Shown piece after piece: positions 1-57,328 of a stretch of 64,000 bases of DNA (position 1 is its first letter; the number at the start of each line of letters is the position of its first letter). Source of the stretch: a candidate division FCPU426 bacterium. GTDB taxonomy: Bacteria > Oederibacteriota > Muellerivitia > Muellerivitales > Muellerivitaceae. The DNA is taken from NCBI GenBank assembly GCA_963847625.1, contig CAWKAR010000003.1, positions 110,350-174,349 on the forward strand, written 5' to 3'. The position numbers and the translations under genes were made by a program. Under the pieces are notes generated by a model that was not told the DNA's origin, made no database searches, and saw only the letters and a program-made list of their open reading frames with translations.

Positions 1-160
1 CCGGCTTTGCCGTATCTGGCTGAACATCAGAGGGGTTTCGCGGGATAAAACGGTAAGGGAAATATTGGGAAAATGGTGAGTAAGCATGTTGTGCGCCTGG
101 TCGAACCATAATGTGCATCGGCCACTAATCACTTTTCCTTCAACTCTCTTGAGTTTGTTT

Positions 161-2347: not shown

Positions 2348-2375
2348 TGTCCAATACACCTCCCCCAAGTGGACA
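2348..2375 (+). repeat. Cassette-boundary site A
   Basis: TGTCCA ATACACC TCCCC CAAG TGGACA. Confidence 0.8.
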
Positions 2376-9758: not shown

Positions 9759-9786
9759 CATCCAATGCGGGTCCCCGTTGTGGACG
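9759..9786 (+). repeat. Cassette-boundary site B
   Basis: CATCCA ATGCGGG TCCCC GTTG TGGACG. Confidence 0.75.
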
Positions 9787-11711: not shown

Positions 11712-11739
11712 TGTCAAATCCGGGTCCCTGCCGTGGACA
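11712..11739 (+). repeat. Cassette-boundary site C
   Basis: TGTCAA ATCCGGG TCCCT GCCG TGGACA. Confidence 0.75.
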
Positions 11740-14676: not shown

Positions 14677-14704
14677 TGTCCACAATGGCTCCCCGTCGTG
14701 AACA
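14677..14704 (+). repeat. Cassette-boundary site D
   Basis: TGTCCA CAATGGC TCCCC GTCG TGAACA. Confidence 0.8.
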
Positions 14705-16710: not shown

Positions 16711-16738
16711 CCCTCATTCTGCCTCCCCAGCGTGGACA
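16711..16738 (+). repeat. Cassette-boundary site E (left arm degenerate)
   Basis: CCCTCA TTCTGCC TCCCC AGCG TGGACA. Confidence 0.65.
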
Positions 16739-32041: not shown

Positions 32042-32069
32042 TGTCCACGAAGGGTCCCCTTCGTGGACA
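32042..32069 (+). repeat. Cassette-boundary site F (perfect 11-6-11 palindrome)
   Basis: TGTCCACGAAG GGTCCC CTTCGTGGACA. Confidence 0.85.
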
Positions 32070-32082
32070 ATTAAACCTCGGA

Positions 32083-32514
32083 TCAAAACCCCAACTTTTT
32101 AAGAAGTTGCGCCGTGGTATACCACTCAATCCCGATTCCCTCAAAATCTCCGTCGTTAGACCATAAGGGTATTTTCAATTCGAGGGACAAAGCCAATAAA
32201 TCTATGTCATCCGGGTCTCTTTTTCCAATTTTCCTCCGGGCTAATGCAAAAGAACCGTGATAATCCTTTAGGCCGTATTCCCTGACAGCCAATAGTTGAA
32301 ATTGGCTTTCCAGGAGTTCCTCGGCTATGCGATATTTCACGGCCATGATTGGAAGGTATTCACGCACTTCTTTGATATTCAATGCCGTGGATATGACTTC
32401 AAGGTGGGAATGAGTAAAAACTTTGAGGGCAGCCCTGCCGGTCGCGGCGGAAAGAAGGACGTTAGCGTCCGCGGCGATTTGCCCGGCGGGTTTTTCTCCA
32501 TGTTTCAAAGTCAT
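32083..32514 (-). CDS. PIN-domain (VapC-like) toxin
   Basis: DANVLLSA, RDPDD, LWSNDGDF; start uncertain. Confidence 0.85.
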   Translation of the reverse strand: MTLKHGEKPAGQIAADANVLLSAATGRAALKVFTHSHLEVISTALNIKEVREYLPIMAVKYRIAEELLESQFQLLAVREYGLKDYHGSFALARRKIGKRDPDDIDLLALSLELKIPLWSNDGDFEGIGIEWYTTAQLLKKLGF

Positions 32515-32740
32515 GTGTAACCGTCCGCTCACTAACGCCTGATTTTTTGAGATGGTTGGAAATGGCGGAGCCAAGGTTCGTTAAAAGTTCCCTCCGCAAT
32601 TCCAGGGGAAGTTCCTGGGACTTGGACATAGGTACCAATAGGCTGGCGACTTTCCCGTGTTTGGTCACAAACACGAGATCGTCCCCGCTCAGAAACTCCG
32701 GCGCGTGATCCCTAAATTCCCTTACCCCTGCGACTCGCAT
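32462..32740 (-). CDS. Phd/YefM-like antitoxin
   Basis: GVREFR..VFVTKHGK; overlaps the PIN gene. Confidence 0.8.
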   Translation of the reverse strand: MRVAGVREFRDHAPEFLSGDDLVFVTKHGKVASLLVPMSKSQELPLELRRELLTNLGSAISNHLKKSGVSERTVTHDFETWRKTRRANRRGR

Positions 32741-32837
32741 AAAACCACCTTCCTGCAACCTATGATACTTTCGGCCCTTTCAATATAGACGTTCTTATAA
32801 TTATGTCAACAATTATGTACACATTACCCATTTTAGG

Positions 32838-32890
32838 TGTCCACGATCCCTGCCGCTCGCTGCGGTGCGAGCGGATCCCCGTCGCGGACA
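32838..32890 (+). repeat. Cassette-boundary site G (53-bp hairpin-containing variant)
   Basis: TGTCCA CGATCCCTGCCGCTCGC TGCGGT GCGAGCGGA TCCCC GTCG CGGACA. Confidence 0.75.
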
Positions 32891-32896
32891 GCCTCA

Positions 32897-33397
32897 TCAC
32901 ATTAAAATTCGAAGAATCTTCTCAACTACATCTTTCGAGGAACCCGTCCCCACTTCCATCTTGTGTTCGTTCTCAAGTGTGACCCTGGCTTTCAGAACCT
33001 GATTAATACGGACGGAACTTTCAAAGTCATGATTGCCGCTGTCCCTCATTGGGTCAATTATTCGCCGCTTCAATTCGTTAGAGTCATCCAGGAAAAAGGT
33101 GAGCATCACGCAGGAAGCTTTTGGAAATAATCCTTTAAGCCGAATCATCCGTTCTGGTTGAACGTCCACCACCAGGATATTCTTGAAGCCGTATTTAAGA
33201 TACCGTTCCAATGTGAACGCGAGTATTTCCTCGGATAACCGTTCTTCCTCCTGCGATGCATCCCGCCAACCTTCGTGAAGGTGCGCACTCCGAATCCAAT
33301 CAAACTCCAAGCATGGCGATTGCAGTTTTTCTTTGAGAAGTCTACTGAGGGTTGTTTTACCCACTCCGGGTGCACCCACGATAAAAATGATGTCCAT
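32897..33397 (-). CDS. P-loop NTPase/kinase (AAA_18/AAA_33-like)
   Basis: GAPGVGKT; likely start MDIIF at 33397. Confidence 0.75.
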   Translation of the reverse strand: MDIIFIVGAPGVGKTTLSRLLKEKLQSPCLEFDWIRSAHLHEGWRDASQEEERLSEEILAFTLERYLKYGFKNILVVDVQPERMIRLKGLFPKASCVMLTFFLDDSNELKRRIIDPMRDSGNHDFESSVRINQVLKARVTLENEHKMEVGTGSSKDVVEKILRILM

Positions 33398-33441
33398 CAA
33401 TTGCTCCCTAATTTCAGACCTCTCAATCGTCGCTCTTTTTC

Positions 33442-33469
33442 TGTCCACGACGGGTCCCCAGAGTGGACA
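33442..33469 (+). repeat. Cassette-boundary site H
   Basis: TGTCCA CGACGGG TCCCC AGAG TGGACA. Confidence 0.85.
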
Positions 33470-33548
33470 GACATGTGCCGATCAATTGGCTTATTTTACC
33501 TCTTACTGAGCATATAAAAAAATTGTCACGAATAAGCTGTTTTACTGT

Positions 33549-34603
33549 CCCGAGTTCCATAAGTAAGTGCAACACTTAGTGTCTGAAGAAGGCCGCATGA
33601 ATAGGATATGCGGCTATGAAAAAGAAATACAAGCATTTAAGCGTTGAAGAAAGAGATCATTTATCCGTCTTGAAAGGAAAGGGTCTTAGCCTTCGAGCAA
33701 TTTCACGCGCCTTGAAGAGGTCTCCTTCCACCCTCTCCAGGGAACTCAAGCGCAATGCTCCCCCTATCCGTTCTGGTTATTATCTTTCTCATCGAGCCCA
33801 TCAACGGTATGTTGACCGCAACCAACAACGAGCACGCCGTTTACGCCTGAAAACAAAACGAATTCGTGCCTACGTCCGTCGTCAATTGAAACGAGGCTGG
33901 TCTCCAGAACTCATTTCAGGTCGATTAGGTCACCTACGGCCTAAGCAAACCATTGGTCCTGAAGCTATCTATCAGTGGGTTTATGCTGAAGCCACTGAGC
34001 TGATTCCTTGCCTAGTTCGACACCACCGGCGACGATTCTCATTTGGCCATAGCCGTAAGCACGCCAAAAACCATATCCCAGGCCGTGTTTCCATCGATAA
34101 GCGCTCCGAGATCGCCAATCAACGCAAGCAATTCGGCCATTGGGAAACCGACACCATGGTCTCTCGTCAGAGTAAAGTTGCTATGCGGGCTCTCGTCGAG
34201 CGTCAAAGCCGTTTTTCCAAGTTGGGAAAGCTCAAACGAAAGACCGCTTGCCAAATGAGTCATAGCCTCAACCGCGCTTTATGCCGCTTCCCTCAAGACG
34301 CCCGCCTGAGTCTGACCTATGACAACGGAACCGAAAACACCAACCACTTGGAAACCAACCACGTGCTTGGTACAAAATCCTTTTTCTGCGCCCCTTTCCA
34401 CAGTTGGGAAAAAGGTACGGTGGAAAATACTATCGGTCTTGTCCGCCGCCATTTGCCTAAAAAGACTGATCTTGCTAAAGTGTCCTTCAAAGAATTCAGG
34501 ACCATAGAAAGATGGCTCAATAACAGGCCCAGGAAATGTTTGGGCTTTAAAACTCCGGCGGAAGTCTTCCGGCGAAGTGTTGCACTTACTCCGTGAATTC
34601 GGC
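33549..34603 (+). mobile_element. IS30 family insertion sequence
   Basis: Imperfect IRs of about 29 bp ending AGTAAGTGCAACACTT; TGT duplicated on both flanks. Confidence 0.88.
33616..34596 (+). CDS. IS30 transposase
   Basis: GHWETDT, YDNGTE, SWEKGTVEN, LNNRPRKCLG. Confidence 0.93.
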   Translation: MKKKYKHLSVEERDHLSVLKGKGLSLRAISRALKRSPSTLSRELKRNAPPIRSGYYLSHRAHQRYVDRNQQRARRLRLKTKRIRAYVRRQLKRGWSPELISGRLGHLRPKQTIGPEAIYQWVYAEATELIPCLVRHHRRRFSFGHSRKHAKNHIPGRVSIDKRSEIANQRKQFGHWETDTMVSRQSKVAMRALVERQSRFSKLGKLKRKTACQMSHSLNRALCRFPQDARLSLTYDNGTENTNHLETNHVLGTKSFFCAPFHSWEKGTVENTIGLVRRHLPKKTDLAKVSFKEFRTIERWLNNRPRKCLGFKTPAEVFRRSVALTP

Positions 34604-34684
34604 TGTTTATTTAACACCCAACTAATGGTTTCTGAATGAGCCCCAACCCCTTGACTCTTTATTTGCATATGCAATAATATATAT

Positions 34685-34984
34685 ATGTTTGATATCCAAT
34701 TTTCGACCGGTGTCTGGAATGACCTGAAGCCCATCCCCATACGGGGCCAACGGATCATCCTCGATGCGATCGAAGAACAACTCACACATCAGCCCGCGAC
34801 AAAAACAAGGAACCGAAAGATACTATTGAACCTGGTGCCTCCCTGGCAAAATATGCCGCCAATATGGGAATTAAGGGTTGATGATTACCGTGTTTTTTAC
34901 GATGTAGCTGAGGAGGAACAAACGGTGTATGTGCGGACCATCCGTTACAAACCGCCTCACAGCCGAACGGAGGATATTTTATGA
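34685..34984 (+). CDS. RelE/ParE family toxin
   Basis: WELRVDDYRVFY. Confidence 0.85.
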   Translation: MFDIQFSTGVWNDLKPIPIRGQRIILDAIEEQLTHQPATKTRNRKILLNLVPPWQNMPPIWELRVDDYRVFYDVAEEEQTVYVRTIRYKPPHSRTEDIL

Positions 34985-35229
34985 AAACAGTCAATGTCCG
35001 GGATCTTCAGAAAAAGATAAAAGAATTCGTCGATGCCTCCCAAAAGGACCGTGTGGTATTAACCCGCCATGGCAAGCCGTCAGCCATCCTGGTCGGGGTT
35101 GAGGGTGAAGACTGGGAAACGGTTGTGCAGGAAACCAACGCCGAATTTTGGAATTTAATCCAATCCCGCAGAAAGCAAAAAACCATCCCACTTGCCGTGA
35201 TGAAAACCCGCTTGAAATTGAAAAAATAG
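34981..35229 (+). CDS. Phd/YefM antitoxin
   Basis: VVLTRHGKPSAILVG; ATGA overlap with the toxin gene. Confidence 0.85.
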   Translation: MKTVNVRDLQKKIKEFVDASQKDRVVLTRHGKPSAILVGVEGEDWETVVQETNAEFWNLIQSRRKQKTIPLAVMKTRLKLKK

Positions 35230-35230
35230 T

Positions 35231-35283
35231 TGTCCAATCCCACTGCCATTTGCTGCGGTGCAAATGGCTCCCCGGGTTGGACT
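35231..35283 (+). repeat. Cassette-boundary site I (53-bp variant; right half resembles a tRNA 3' end)
   Basis: TGTCCA ATCCCACTGCCATTTGC TGCGGT GCAAATGGC TCCCC GGGT TGGACT. Confidence 0.75.
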
Positions 35284-35313
35284 CCCTTCGTTTCACTCAG
35301 GGCAAGCTCACCC

Positions 35314-35526
35314 TCAAGGCCGTCCTTTCCATAAAGCTTCCTTTCGGGACCTGTTCCACCCTTTGATCTCGCGTTCCCGGCGAGCCGCATCCCTCGCCGT
35401 TTATACCGTTTCCAAGTAGAGGGCTCGCTCGACACGGTGCTGTCGCAAGCGATGTTGGAGATGGTTGGTTATTCCCGTGTAGTACTTCCCCTGCTTGGCA
35501 ATGATGTAGACATACCATGTTGACAT
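35314..35526 (-). pseudogene. Small GIY-YIG nuclease with an in-frame stop (not in the ORF track)
   Basis: MSTWYVYII..YYTGITNHLQHRLRQH..*TARDAARREREIKGWNRSRKE; TAA at 35401-35403. Confidence 0.8.
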
Positions 35527-35570: not shown

Positions 35571-36772
35571 CAGGTATCAAACGTTAAAAATCTCCTGGAT
35601 TCCCGCGAGTGGATATCCGTTTCCAAAGAAGGCCTGCAATTGACGCGTCCAAAAGAACTGTTGATGGAATGGGCGGGCAGGTACCGGTATAACGAAGACA
35701 ACCATTTCGAGCGTTTTTACACCCTTAAATCTTACGAGGAGCTGATGGAGGTTTTATCCCGGAATGATTTGGGCTCGCAAATAATCGGTTACACGAATAG
35801 GTTCGCGCTGACAAGTTTCTCGGGATCGAATTTGTTATCCCCTTATATTCGCAGTAAAACCATAAGCTTTTATGTCGATGATATTGATTTTTGGATAGCA
35901 CGAATGGAACTAAAAAGGGTTGAGAGCGGGGAGAATGTGTTCCTAGTGAGGCCCTATGACGAAGGGGTTTACTACGGGTCGAAAAACGAAAAGGGGGTGC
36001 CTGTGGTTTCCCCCATCCAGTTATACTTGGATTTGAAAACCTCAGGCGGGCGCGGTGAGGACGCGGCGGAAAATTTATTGAAGGAAGTTATCGAAAAACA
36101 ATGGCAAATTTAAGCGGTTATTCACAAGAGGTGGTTGAGGCGGCCAAATCGGTACTCATCGAGTGCGCCCATCTATTGGGTGAGTACCGTGAAAATATCG
36201 TTTTAGTGGGCGGCTGGGTGCCGACGCTCATCCTGCCGGACGCCATGGAAAATCATATTGGCAGTACCGACGTTGATTTGGCCTTGGATCACCGGAAACT
36301 CCGGGATGCGGGGTATCAAAAAATCGAGAAACTTCTTTTGGGCGCCGGATATGAAAGGACCGAGAAGCCGTTTCAATACCAGAAAAAAGTGAGGGGAATA
36401 CCAGTTTTCGTTGATCTTCTTGCCGGTGAATATTCAGGCACGGGCAAAAGGCATCGGCATCAAAAAATACAAGGATTGAAAGCCCGTAAGGCGCGCGGTT
36501 GCGATTTGGCGTTTGAAAGCCCAGTTGAAATTACAATGGATGGCACCCTTCCTTCGGGAAGCCAGGATAGGGTTATGATCCGAGTGGCTTCCATTGTGAG
36601 TTTTATCGTTATGAAAGGCATGGCTTTGGCCGGTCGTTTCAAACCCAAGGATGCCTATGACATCTATTTTTGCGTGCTTTATTATCCGGGCGGGTTCAAG
36701 GGTCTTGCCGCCGAGTTTAAAGGTCATGCCGATAACCTATTGGTCAAAGAAGGTTTGGAAAAAATCCGTAAT
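35571..36772 (+). repeat. 1202-bp inverted copy of 290..1491 (3' abiEi plus truncated abiEii)
   Basis: Reverse-complement match with identical ORF translations; junctions read from the sequence. Confidence 0.92.
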
Positions 36773-38476: not shown

Positions 38477-39292
38477 TTTAAATACCATTATTTTACCGTT
38501 TTGGGAAAGATGGCGGGAATTCTTTGAAAATCCGACTCCGACCGGAGGAAAACCCCATTTGAAAGCCAATTTTGAATTTTGAGTTTTAAATTCTAAATTG
38601 TGGTTAGATTTCCGTGCCAATTATCCTTAAGACAGTTAATGAATTTGGTACGGTACAGGCCGCATGAGGCTACCAGCCGAGTGCGAGGGTTGCCGGGGCA
38701 GATTTATATCAAATCTGTACCAGCCTCGCTATTAGTTTTATGGAAGGCCTATGCGTCGAGGCTTCATGCCGACCAACCATAAAACTTAAGGGAGGCCGGT
38801 ATAGTACCGATTTACTTCAATTATCCCGGGCATAGCCCGGGAATAACAAATAGTTGAATCGGCACAAGCCGAGATGCGTTTCTGGTGTGCCGGGCCATCC
38901 ATTAAAAAGCCCGGCCTGGCACGCATTTCGGAAATCCTCAATAATTCAACATTTAACATTGAGAATTTAGAATTGCCGTTCCAGCCCATGCGGGTAGGAC
39001 CCCGGCCTCTGCGGGCAGGGATGTGGGCGGTTTATCCCCCATACCGACGGATGCCGCCGGAAATGTGGGCGGTTTATCTCCCCTACCCGCAAATGACACC
39101 GGGAATGTGGGCGGTTTATCTCCCCTGTCGGCAAATGACACTAGGAATGTGGGCAGTTTATCTCCCCCTACCGGCAAATGACACTAGGAATGTGGGCAGT
39201 TTATCTCCCCCTACCGGCAAATGACACTGGGAATGTGGGCAGTTTATCTCCCCTGTCGGCAGATGACACCGGGAATGTGGGCAGTTTATCTC

Positions 39293-40648
39293 GGTAGTGT
39301 ATTTTTGGGGGGTGTAAAAAGAAGCGGGCGTAACATGGTGTTTGTCTAGAACGCCATATCCTTTTTGTGAAAGGAAGTTACGCCCATGAAGAATATACAC
39401 CTAGCCTTACAGGCCTTGGCAAGAGAGAAAACTCAAGCCTGGGTGAAATCTGTGGTTGGAAGCCGTGAGGTCGGCGAATGGGTAGGAGAAGCCCTGAATC
39501 AACAACTTTCGGAGGCTTTCAACGCCCAGTTGAGGAAAGAACGGGATGAAGCGTTGAATCGCCAGCCATATGAAAGGCAGGAAGGAAGCCGGTATCGCAA
39601 TGGGTTCAAGCGGATCCTAGTTGCTGGATTTCTGGGACCTTTGGTGCTGAAAAAGCCAGTTTTGAGGAAAGGCGGATTTGTTTCGGAAACTCTGACGGCA
39701 TTGAGAGATGGAAGCCAAGCCTTGGTGGGATTTCTGGGAATGAAGTTCTGGCTAAAGGGGGCTTCCACCCGGTCGGTGGCGGCAGGGATAAACGAGGCCT
39801 TTGGAACTAAGTGGACGGCCAATCACATTAGCCAGATGACCAATGCCTTAGAACCTACCCTGGAAGCCTGGGCTAAACGGCTATTACCCACAGGGATTCA
39901 ATACTTGTACTTGGATGCGCTTTACCTGACGGTCAGGCGACAGGAAGCTGGTGTGAAACAGGCTTTGCTGGTGGCTATCGGGGTGGACGGGAACCTGAAG
40001 AGGCATTTTCTGGGGTACTTGGTGGGAGACCGTGAAAGTGAGGCGGCCTGGGAAGCCATGTTGGAAGACTTGTTGAACAGAGGCTTAGACAGGAAAAGCT
40101 TACGAATGGTGGTATCCGACGCCCACGGTGGGATTGTCGCGGCGGTGGAAAATCGTCTTGGGATCCCCCATCAATTATGCTTGGTACACAAGATGGAGAA
40201 CGTCCGGTGTCGAGTGGCCCAGAAGGACAGAAAGGCATTCATGGCGGATTTCAAGGCGGTGTATTGGGCCGAGAGTCGAGAAGAACGCCTTGGTGGCACT
40301 AGGAAGTCTCAAGGCTAAGTGGTCCAAAACCTATCCCAAAGCAGTGGAGATGGCAGAGGAAAAATTCGACTCCTATACGCAGTTTTTCCAGGAAGACCGG
40401 AAGTTTTGGAAGATTACCCGCACCAGCAACCTAATCGAACGGCTTAACGAGGAGTTAAGGAAAAGGCTGAGGCCAGCGGGGATGATGCAGAACGAGCTGG
40501 AGATCGCTAAGTTGGTGTGGGGGGTAACCGAAACCCAACAACAAAATTGGAACAAGACTAAAGTCTACACCTCAAGAAGGGAGGCGGAGGTTCAAGCTGC
40601 TTGATTAAGACGCCCGTGGAAATTTACACCCAAAATATTGACGCAGGG
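39293..40648 (+). mobile_element. IS256 family insertion sequence
   Basis: Ends ..GGGTGTAAA / TTTACACCC..; TSD TTTATCTC at 39285-39292 and 40649-40656. Confidence 0.88.
39386..40604 (+). pseudogene. IS256 (mutator-type) transposase, frameshifted near 40287
   Basis: YLDAL, VSDAHGG, QLCLVH in the first frame; TSNLIERLN in the second. Confidence 0.85.
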
Positions 40649-40930
40649 TTTATCTCCCCCTACCGGCAAATGACACTAGGAATGTGGGCAGTTTATCTCC
40701 CCCTACCGGCAAATGACACTAGGAATGTGGGCAGTTTATCTCCCCCTACCGGCAAATGACACTAGGAATGTGGGCAGTTTATCTCCCCCTACCGGCAAAT
40801 GACACTGGGAATGTGGGCAGTTTATCTCCCCTGCCGACGAGTTATCTCCCTAATGCCGCTGGGTTATCTCCCTAATGCCGCTGGGTTATCTCACATGCCG
40901 CCGGGTTATCCCCTGGTTCCAGGGGGTGCT

Positions 40931-57300: not shown

Positions 57301-57328
57301 TGTCCAATGCGCCTCCCTGTCATGGATA
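57301..57328 (+). repeat. Cassette-boundary site J
   Basis: TGTCCA ATGCGCC TCCCT GTCA TGGATA. Confidence 0.7.

Follow-up and report, generated by a model that had tools for sequence, protein, structure and literature searches.

A 64-kb window of the genome of a candidate division FCPU426 bacterium (contig CAWKAR010000003.1, positions 110,350 to 174,349) harbours short palindromic sites that bound small gene cassettes. Two of these, site G (32838..32890, plus strand) and site I (35231..35283, plus strand), measure 53 bp each compared to 28 bp in the six strict plain sites of the window. Site G is a 28-bp site with a hairpin module in place of positions 11-13, and site I is a 28-bp site carrying such a module as well. 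The module within G (32848..32875, plus strand) has a CCCT foot, a 9-bp stem with 8 pairs and a TGCGGT loop; the module within I (35241..35268, plus strand) has a CACT foot, a 9-bp stem and the same loop. Both sites display CTGCC at offsets 13-17 and GC-TGCGGT-GC at offsets 22-31, and the three stem pairs that differ between them are all compensated. The first-pass annotation of this DNA had described two 53-bp sites, 25 bp longer than the standard site, with shared motifs and with stems that differ but still pair; its coordinates and sequences proved exact. Folded as single-stranded DNA (ssDNA), both strands of G and I form an outer stem, an internal loop and an inner stem (z -2.0 to -5.2). 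Positions 32798-32948 were matched without difference by a contig from a public DNA run, which may be the source sample, and no junction skipping the cassette or the module was found in the read-derived public DNA contigs at their thin coverage.

The cassette to the left of G starts at a plain 28-bp crossover site (32042..32069, plus strand), where the homologous cassettes of three genomes also begin. It encodes a toxin-antitoxin (TA) pair on the minus strand: a PIN-domain toxin of 143 aa (32083..32514; Pfam PIN_2, 1.5e-17) and a putative antitoxin of 92 aa (32462..32740) that overlaps the start of the PIN gene and is conserved in the homologous cassette L209. This second protein had no match in Pfam or PHROGs, and its label is based on size, overlap and conservation. 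A Sigma70-like promoter of the operon (11/12, consensus match only) lies within the cassette at 32782..32809 on the minus strand. The next cassette carries a gene for a P-loop NTPase or nucleotide-kinase-like protein of 166 aa (32897..33397, minus strand; Pfam AAA_18, 3e-7) and runs to plain site H (33442..33469, plus strand, sequence match). The third cassette, on the plus strand, contains an IS30-family element (33549..34603; NF033563), of which blastn revealed more than 30 near-identical copies in the genome, a Sigma70-like promoter (34651..34680, consensus match only), a ParE/RelE-type toxin of 99 aa (34685..34984; PF05016, phrog_1213) and a Phd/YefM antitoxin of 82 aa (34981..35229; PF02604). 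Among the loci searched, no homologue of the kinase cassette or of the TA cassette of site I was found. The earlier remark that each long site lies at the right edge of a TA pair is true of both, but these edges are opposite operon ends: G stands at the promoter (5') end of the antitoxin-PIN operon, and I at the 3' end of the ParE/RelE-Phd operon, 1 bp past the stop codon. Further plain sites of the window, all on the plus strand, lie at 2348..2375, 9759..9786 (decayed), 11712..11739, 14677..14704 and 57301..57328, and a site with an intact right arm and a decayed left arm lies at 16711..16738.

The 28-bp site and its point of exchange

The plain site is an inverted repeat of 13 bp, a central TC and 13 bp. 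In the consensus the outer six bases and positions 14-17 are most conserved, and the sites have weak symmetric A/T-rich extensions. About 46 plain sites are present in the source genome (G000, its own contig set; L-numbers denote loci fetched from relatives). The strict site pattern is shared by 19 of 24 relatives within the family and was absent from all 16 genomes of other families. Adjacent sites are co-oriented in 113 of 117 pairs. The gene is antiparallel to the sites in 73 of 77 single-gene cassettes, with its stop at a median distance of 18 bp from the site. The median cassette measures 827 bp, and TA pairs make up 21 of 130 cassettes. The cassettes are shuffled: one of 800 bp is 99.6 % identical across two genera while its neighbours are different.

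The point of exchange was located by comparing sites with a shared flank; pairs in which a group II intron borders the site, and so mimics a shared flank, were excluded. Among 21 site pairs with a left flank shared at 95 % or more, no mismatches occur at positions 1-13 and 18 at positions 16-28. Conversely, 14 pairs with a right flank shared at this level show 37 mismatches in the left arm and 3 in the right arm. Identity switches between positions 13 and 18, and the sharpness of this switch argues against random exchange between short repeats. Three points weigh against an exact central exchange: the pairs are clustered and not independent, the three right-arm mismatches stand among the right-flank pairs, and a crude breakpoint likelihood is level between position 13 and about 21, peaking at 21. 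In view of the clustering and the flat likelihood, the data favour the centre without fixing the exact base. The exchange zone 14-17 includes the asymmetric TC, and a resolution of 2 bp is beyond the reach of these pairs. One pair had pointed to a crossover close to the right end; the full set of 35 pairs did not bear this out. The 28-bp palindrome is a crossover site with central exchange, probably acting as double-stranded DNA, that bounds shuffled cassettes; shared flanks and array layout agree on the role as recombination boundary that had been read from the window alone.

Positions 11-13, which the module occupies in site G, read GGG in 381 of 479 sites, GGC in 26, GGA in 13 and ACC in 12. 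Between the arms of plain sites, whether of one site or of the two sites flanking a cassette, covariation was weak and not discriminating (3.0, 3.23 and 3.13 pairs vs 2.89±0.06). TGGACA was considered as the -35 box of cassette promoters and rejected, since 188 flanks showed no -10 peak at any offset. Group II introns have their 5' ends 2 nt outside either edge of 26 sites. These introns hit 28-bp sites in at least three ways (L191:13582, L226, L228, L232, L236-L244, L006, L017, L151): besides the edge position, they are found within the left arm and, at the site next to the enzyme gene, close to its centre. A conserved cassette of ~200 bp without a clear open reading frame (ORF) occurs in three or four genomes at 85-90 % identity (L008:9326-9587, G000:C13:6841-7102, L039). 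A viral collection gave 2 and 1 matches only. A literature search, with little coverage of subscription journals, yielded no description of a 28-bp cassette system.

The hairpin module in long sites and in other repeats

The long-site pattern gave 20 matches of 51-53 bp in 8 of the 31 family genomes, and none when reversed. Covariation was analyzed for 18 of these, two of 51 bp being excluded; related copies in the set are not independent. The inner helix is paired for 91.9 %, with two-sided changes in 8 of 9 pairs, and its covariation score is 0.34, compared to 0.12 after shuffling (0/500) and 0.05-0.09 for slid helices. The outer helix is paired for 74 % and its inner three pairs are mostly broken. 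Further copies thus exist and their stems covary, so that neither outcome named in advance as refuting (no other copies, or copies without covariation) occurred. This bears out the earlier reading of the compensatory changes as a sign of selection on structure: the stem is under selection to pair. A link of the long sites to TA cassettes weakens once the discovery sites are set aside. Over all sites, 6 of 20 long ones have a TA pair as their immediate left neighbour, compared to 17 of 155 plain ones (p=0.03). With G and I excluded, the count for long sites drops to 4 of 18 against the same 17 of 155 (p=0.24). Of the 20 long sites, 10 are TA-free on both sides. The TA calls are Pfam matches among a chosen subset of small ORFs, making both rates lower bounds.

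The hairpin was first seen genome-wide in a search for loop and stem that ignored the sites. The module is 28 nt long and consists of a C[AC]CT foot, a 9-bp stem and a fixed loop. The source genome holds 44 copies, 9 inside sites and 35 elsewhere, and none turn up when the genome is reversed; of the 35, one or two fall within long ORFs and could be chance matches. The C[AC]CT foot is present in 44 of 47 matches of a search that demanded a CT- or CAC-type foot, a demand that was not made at the first sighting. In 30 copies picked by foot, closing GC and loop alone, pairing was 0.83, compared to 0.54±0.03 after arm shuffling. G-T pairs are tolerated in the stems and most copies are intergenic. 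Stand-alone copies are nested in other, unrelated palindromic repeats. The strict module occurs in 7 of 99 genomes of the phylum, all of the same family; the two genomes that represent this genus hold 29 and 21 copies. Four host repeats, among which the cassette site and a sequence resembling Y1 terminal repeats, are found in multi-copy empty versions with 3 nt where the module sits. The module either replaces 3 nt (28 for 3) or inserts 25 nt, absorbing three host bases into its stem.

Comparison of homologous cassettes revealed when sites acquire the module. The PIN cassette of site G is found in three other genomes at 83-86 % identity, from site to site and between different neighbours, and there its right site is a plain one of 28 bp. 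The closest homologue of G is identical over the first 10 nt and continues with GGG and then TCCCC. For the six long sites that could be compared, all 10 pairs show the homologue of the left cassette ending in a plain site; one extra left-flank pair, sharing a composite repeat only, was left out of this count. Homologues of the right cassette carry plain sites in 16 of 17 pairs. Only 26 of 584 distinct sites from the fetched arrays bear a module. These are differences in presence at orthologous positions, in homologous cassettes and in host repeats, between homologues that are 78-91 % identical and not at strain level. The presence of the module in sites is a late, sporadic gain. The dedicated second site class proposed at first is at odds with these data, since 35 of the 44 modules lie outside sites and homologous cassettes end in plain sites. 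The hairpin module is best explained as an independent, very small mobile element of a REP/SDR-like kind; it is neither site-specific nor a special mark of TA cassettes. The covariation of its stem would then reflect a need of the module to fold and no requirement of the cassette.

The small dispersed repeats (SDR) of Nostocaceae, reported by Elhai in 2008, are reportedly hairpins of ~25 nt with a fixed loop and a variable, paired stem, precisely inserted into another palindromic repeat. The present module resembles them as a nested hairpin with fixed loop and variable paired stem. It differs in sequence and phylum, in having a recombination site among its hosts and in replacing or absorbing three host bases. 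SDR5 inserts precisely into HIP1 (PMC4390886). REP elements with RAYT or TIRYT enzymes (PMC3479197; PMC3733652; PMC6006769) share with the module the imperfect hairpin, a conserved 4-nt foot at the 5' side, a dispersed and intergenic distribution and the presence of TIRYT-type Y1 genes, which the source genome also has. Some REPs were reported inside other palindromes (among PMC3479197, PMC3733652 and PMC6006769). Unlike REPs, the module has a low copy number, does not flank a transposase gene and is nested in other repeats rather than forming dimers.

Y1 HUH enzymes recognize a 4-nt foot 5' of an imperfect hairpin (PMC3479197), and about ten module copies sit in sequence resembling the terminal repeats that flank the three Y1/DnaA-HTH genes of the genome. 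A Y1 HUH transposase of the TIRYT type can be put forward, with somewhat less than even confidence, as the mover of the module. Several findings speak against this mover or against a uniform 3-nt replacement. The 160-bp flanks of the three Y1 genes contain GGGGTCAG-type repeats and no module copy, so that the mover remains a guess. For this Y1 subclass no neighbouring REP-like sequences were detected (PMC6006769), and the foot C[AC]CT is not the GTAG/GTRG or CGTC of known REPs (PMC3733652). Furthermore, in two host contexts the empty versions that occur in several copies have other lengths, and the raw tally of gaps (34 of 3 nt, 29 of 4 nt) consists mostly of chance matches.

The strongest alternative to a guest module is that the 53-bp form is a working, conditional site, in which hairpin extrusion restores the spacing of the outer boxes and which acts as a switch on cassette mobility, enriched at TA cassettes. 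Extrusion, under supercoiling or in ssDNA, would bring the outer boxes back to within 1 bp of the plain spacing, the foot supplies the T that plain sites have at position 14, and 14+15 nt remain outside the hairpin. The outer boxes of long sites are undecayed: right-arm mismatches in G000 number 1.38 in long and 1.64 in plain sites. This lack of extra decay, a point against an inert guest, fits a recent insertion but equally continued use. TA adjacency is raised when the discovery sites are counted, and of the six long sites with left-flank homologues four could be TA cassettes, three of them with Pfam support. On the other hand, the TA enrichment loses significance when G and I are left out, unrelated repeats show the same foot and the same 25 extra nt, the dinucleotide on the left would read TG instead of TC, and among near-identical pairs, a small sample, none shows exchange across a long site. 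This alternative is considered unlikely compared to a module that visits the sites as one of several hosts.

Some module-bearing loci have a more complex structure. Two long sites 3.4 kb apart (G000:C13:109318 and 112720), around fragments of an AcrB-type gene, carry an identical module between different arms and flanks, which suggests conversion or local copying. Composite sites of 76 bp (G000:C13:134785-134860, C33:46971, L039) appear to consist of a first module, with a CGGGG loop, into which a second hairpin with an AACG foot is nested, and tandem modules are present at G000:C3:7867-7919. Abutting site I, positions 35284-35320 form a short repeat of the CTTCG...CTCAGGG type, a kind that hosts the module elsewhere; it was matched by short reads of unrelated contexts.

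Candidate recombinases and a proposed mechanism

A candidate serine recombinase is encoded outside the window (G000:C61:35485-36315), its gene ending 8 bp short of the opening site of another array. The protein has the Resolvase and Recombinase domains (PF00239 and PF07508) with an intact VRVSS motif, lacks PF13408, which is present in three full-length relatives, and ends where their zinc ribbon starts. It belongs to a group of 19 short proteins of 275-283 aa, which share 70-100 % identity, with next matches at 60 % or less, and form one clade (support 100/99). A median dN/dS of 0.086 over the 25 of 36 pairs for which it was computable points to strong purifying selection. A co-oriented site lies 8-36 bp past the stop in 8 of 9 intact loci, one of them split by a group II intron and one cut by a contig end, and in both 5'-truncated copies. 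Such a site is absent after the stop in all three full-length relatives of the same family, the fairer control, and in all 78 more distant loci, largely from other taxa. Among 584 sites, 17 left flanks (including one duplicate and one spacer-only match) and no right flanks match the 3' end of the gene, and remnants of the gene are found in four genomes without an intact copy. A structure model of low confidence (pLDDT 61, pTM 0.40), used for fold class only, had serine integrases as best structural matches.

By this genomic association the short serine recombinase probably recombines the plain sites. In serine integrases the recombinase domain spans 13 bp and recognizes positions 9-11, counted from the centre (PMC3783163), and the conserved outer box of the plain site lies at positions 9-11, in agreement with that structure. 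These enzymes cut at a centre that is asymmetric, with an overhang of 2 nt (PMC11722253), and loss of the coiled coil removes directionality (PMC5499577). Three points count against the assignment. A coiled-coil-less integrase was inefficient (PMC5499577); at L071 the site is 110 bp away, with an inverted core and at a contig end; and an intact short gene is present in no more than 5 of the 31 family genomes and in none of 68 further genomes of the phylum, compared to sites in 19 of the 24 relatives first searched, so that most arrays would need a lost or a trans-acting enzyme.

With large serine integrases (LI/A118, SPbeta, Bxb1, phiC31; PMC3783163; PMC5499577; PMC11722253) the system shares the catalytic and recombinase domains, the asymmetric central dinucleotide and the 13-bp footprint of the recombinase domain. 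It differs in that the protein ends at 275-283 aa without a zinc ribbon or coiled coil, and in that one symmetric site type is used instead of attP and attB, with dozens of sites per genome.

Another enzyme might act on the sites, with the serine recombinase as a mere neighbour or passenger: the 28 bp also divide as a dif-like site of 11+6+11, open to a host Xer-like enzyme or to a trans-acting tyrosine recombinase of integrative elements. The 6-bp spacer at 12-17 would overlap the exchange window 13-18, G000 has 18 matches to tyrosine recombinases, arrays often lie in or near integrative elements, and many genomes with arrays lack an intact serine enzyme. None of the 17 tyrosine recombinases inspected as possible array heads lies less than 14 kb from a site, however, while the serine gene has its fixed adjacency and its remnants. 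Tyrosine-type recombination requires an overlap region that matches between the recombining partners; here positions 12-13 vary and travel with the left flank. This explanation is held to be marginally less probable still than the conditional site, and the short serine recombinase is retained as the candidate.

Acinetobacter pdif sites, which are recombined by XerC/D, are likewise short and bound accessory modules, often TA; they have distinct XerC and XerD arms; the arms of the 28-bp site are symmetric. In staphylococcal cassette chromosome (SCC) elements tandem cassettes are formed by a serine recombinase; these elements are tens of kb long, have their own full-length Ccr and are stacked at one locus.

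About eight related tyrosine integrases (G000 C3, C4, C16, C30, C36, C52, C56, C60; L001, L003) belong to a family of small integrative elements with TraD-like and relaxase-like genes. Arrays are often found within 5-16 kb of these integrases, and ArdC or ParB-domain genes flank several arrays. The 18 matches in G000 include no obvious canonical XerC/XerD pair; stand-alone candidates are C60:99799 and C39:123865. By eye, the closest full-length relatives of the short serine recombinase (G000:C39:128107-129630, loci L075-L149) often end in or just before tRNA-like sequence.

The module could also act at the RNA level at gene boundaries, as a terminator, a processing or stabilising stem or a protein-binding hairpin, and be kept in sites for that reason. 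Its intergenic position, tolerated G-T pairs and fixed loop would suit such a role, and REPs have been proposed to act in RNA (PMC3733652). Stand-alone modules follow no significant strand rule (16 vs 9, p=0.23), an Rfam scan gave no match, and homologous cassettes do without the module, which together make an RNA role improbable. The embedded terminator of the first-pass annotation is not supported either, as no T-run follows the stem of G or I, neither is among the 2 terminator-like matches, and they stand at opposite operon ends.

The attC-like folded substrate, the first of the interpretations offered for the long sites, is largely refuted: long sites do fold with an outer stem, an unpaired spacer and an inner stem, and the arrays do contain TA pairs and sites targeted by group II introns, as attC is, but no match to the integron integrase profile TIGR02249 above cut-off was found in the 31 family genomes, exchange takes place at the site centre and not near one end, plain-site arms barely covary, about 95 % of sites lack an inner stem, and the Rfam scan gave no match.

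The likeness to integrons and clusters of attC sites lacking integron-integrases (CALINs) is one of layout. Compared to these systems (IntI, attI, attC; PMC8618304), tandem, co-oriented and mostly single-ORF cassettes are shared, as are TA cassettes that carry a promoter of their own, orphan arrays at a distance from the enzyme gene, exchange of cassettes between genera and group II introns at the sites. In contrast, IntI is absent here, the candidate enzyme is a serine recombinase, the site is a sequence-conserved, symmetric 28-bp element with central exchange instead of a folded attC, and cassette genes point towards the 3' end of the enzyme gene instead of away from it. With regard to attI and Pc, the enzyme-proximal site has a distinct left arm, there is no -10 signal at a fixed distance from the sites and no shared array promoter was identified. 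The cassette system works like an integron but does not have the integrase and the attC sites that define one; its candidate enzyme derives from serine integrases and lacks their zinc ribbon.

The reading preferred here, with a probability of roughly two in three, is that of two nested systems, a cassette site of a serine recombinase and an independent mobile hairpin. A large-serine-recombinase relative of ~277 aa without the zinc-ribbon/coiled-coil domain would bind the outer TGTCCA/TGGACA boxes, cut the site centre and swap arms. As it has no directionality domain, both excision and insertion of single-gene cassettes should be open to it. Arrays would be built, integron-like, beside the 3' end of its own gene, and orphan arrays would be served in trans. 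When single-stranded the sites would also fold, and this folding would draw parasites: group II introns and, most simply, the module as a further guest. The module would land in palindromic repeats, probably when these are single-stranded, replacing 3 nt. In duplex DNA it pushes the left box 25 bp from the crossover, so that the junction should be damped or locked; that the module locks its junction is judged slightly more plausible than that it does not. The wider idea of a convergent integron equivalent, in which a compact, direction-free serine recombinase acts on a 28-bp site and a 25-nt hairpin is a heritable lock or topology switch fixing chosen cassettes, TA included, is a speculative extension and is rather doubtful.

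The cassette system is the new part and depends on the candidate enzyme; the module alone is an element of REP/SDR type. Integrons are the textbook platform for gene capture, and tools for their detection seek IntI and attC, so that a parallel system based on another chemistry would escape them. If the assignment is true, a natural serine recombinase of 277 aa acting on one 28-bp site, about half the size of large serine integrases, would be a tool similar to Cre/lox and a natural test of the purpose of the zinc-ribbon/coiled-coil domain. The module offers a small, defined substrate for asking what moves mini-elements and what TIRYT enzymes do.

Two further features of the window were observed. 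Just to the right of site I, positions 35571-36772 form an inverted duplicate of 290-1491 (1202 bp, 100 % identity) with an AbiEi-like gene and a partner ORF. Arrays of 42-43-bp tandem repeats (39018-39301 and 40614-40879) lie on either side of a Mutator-family transposase gene.

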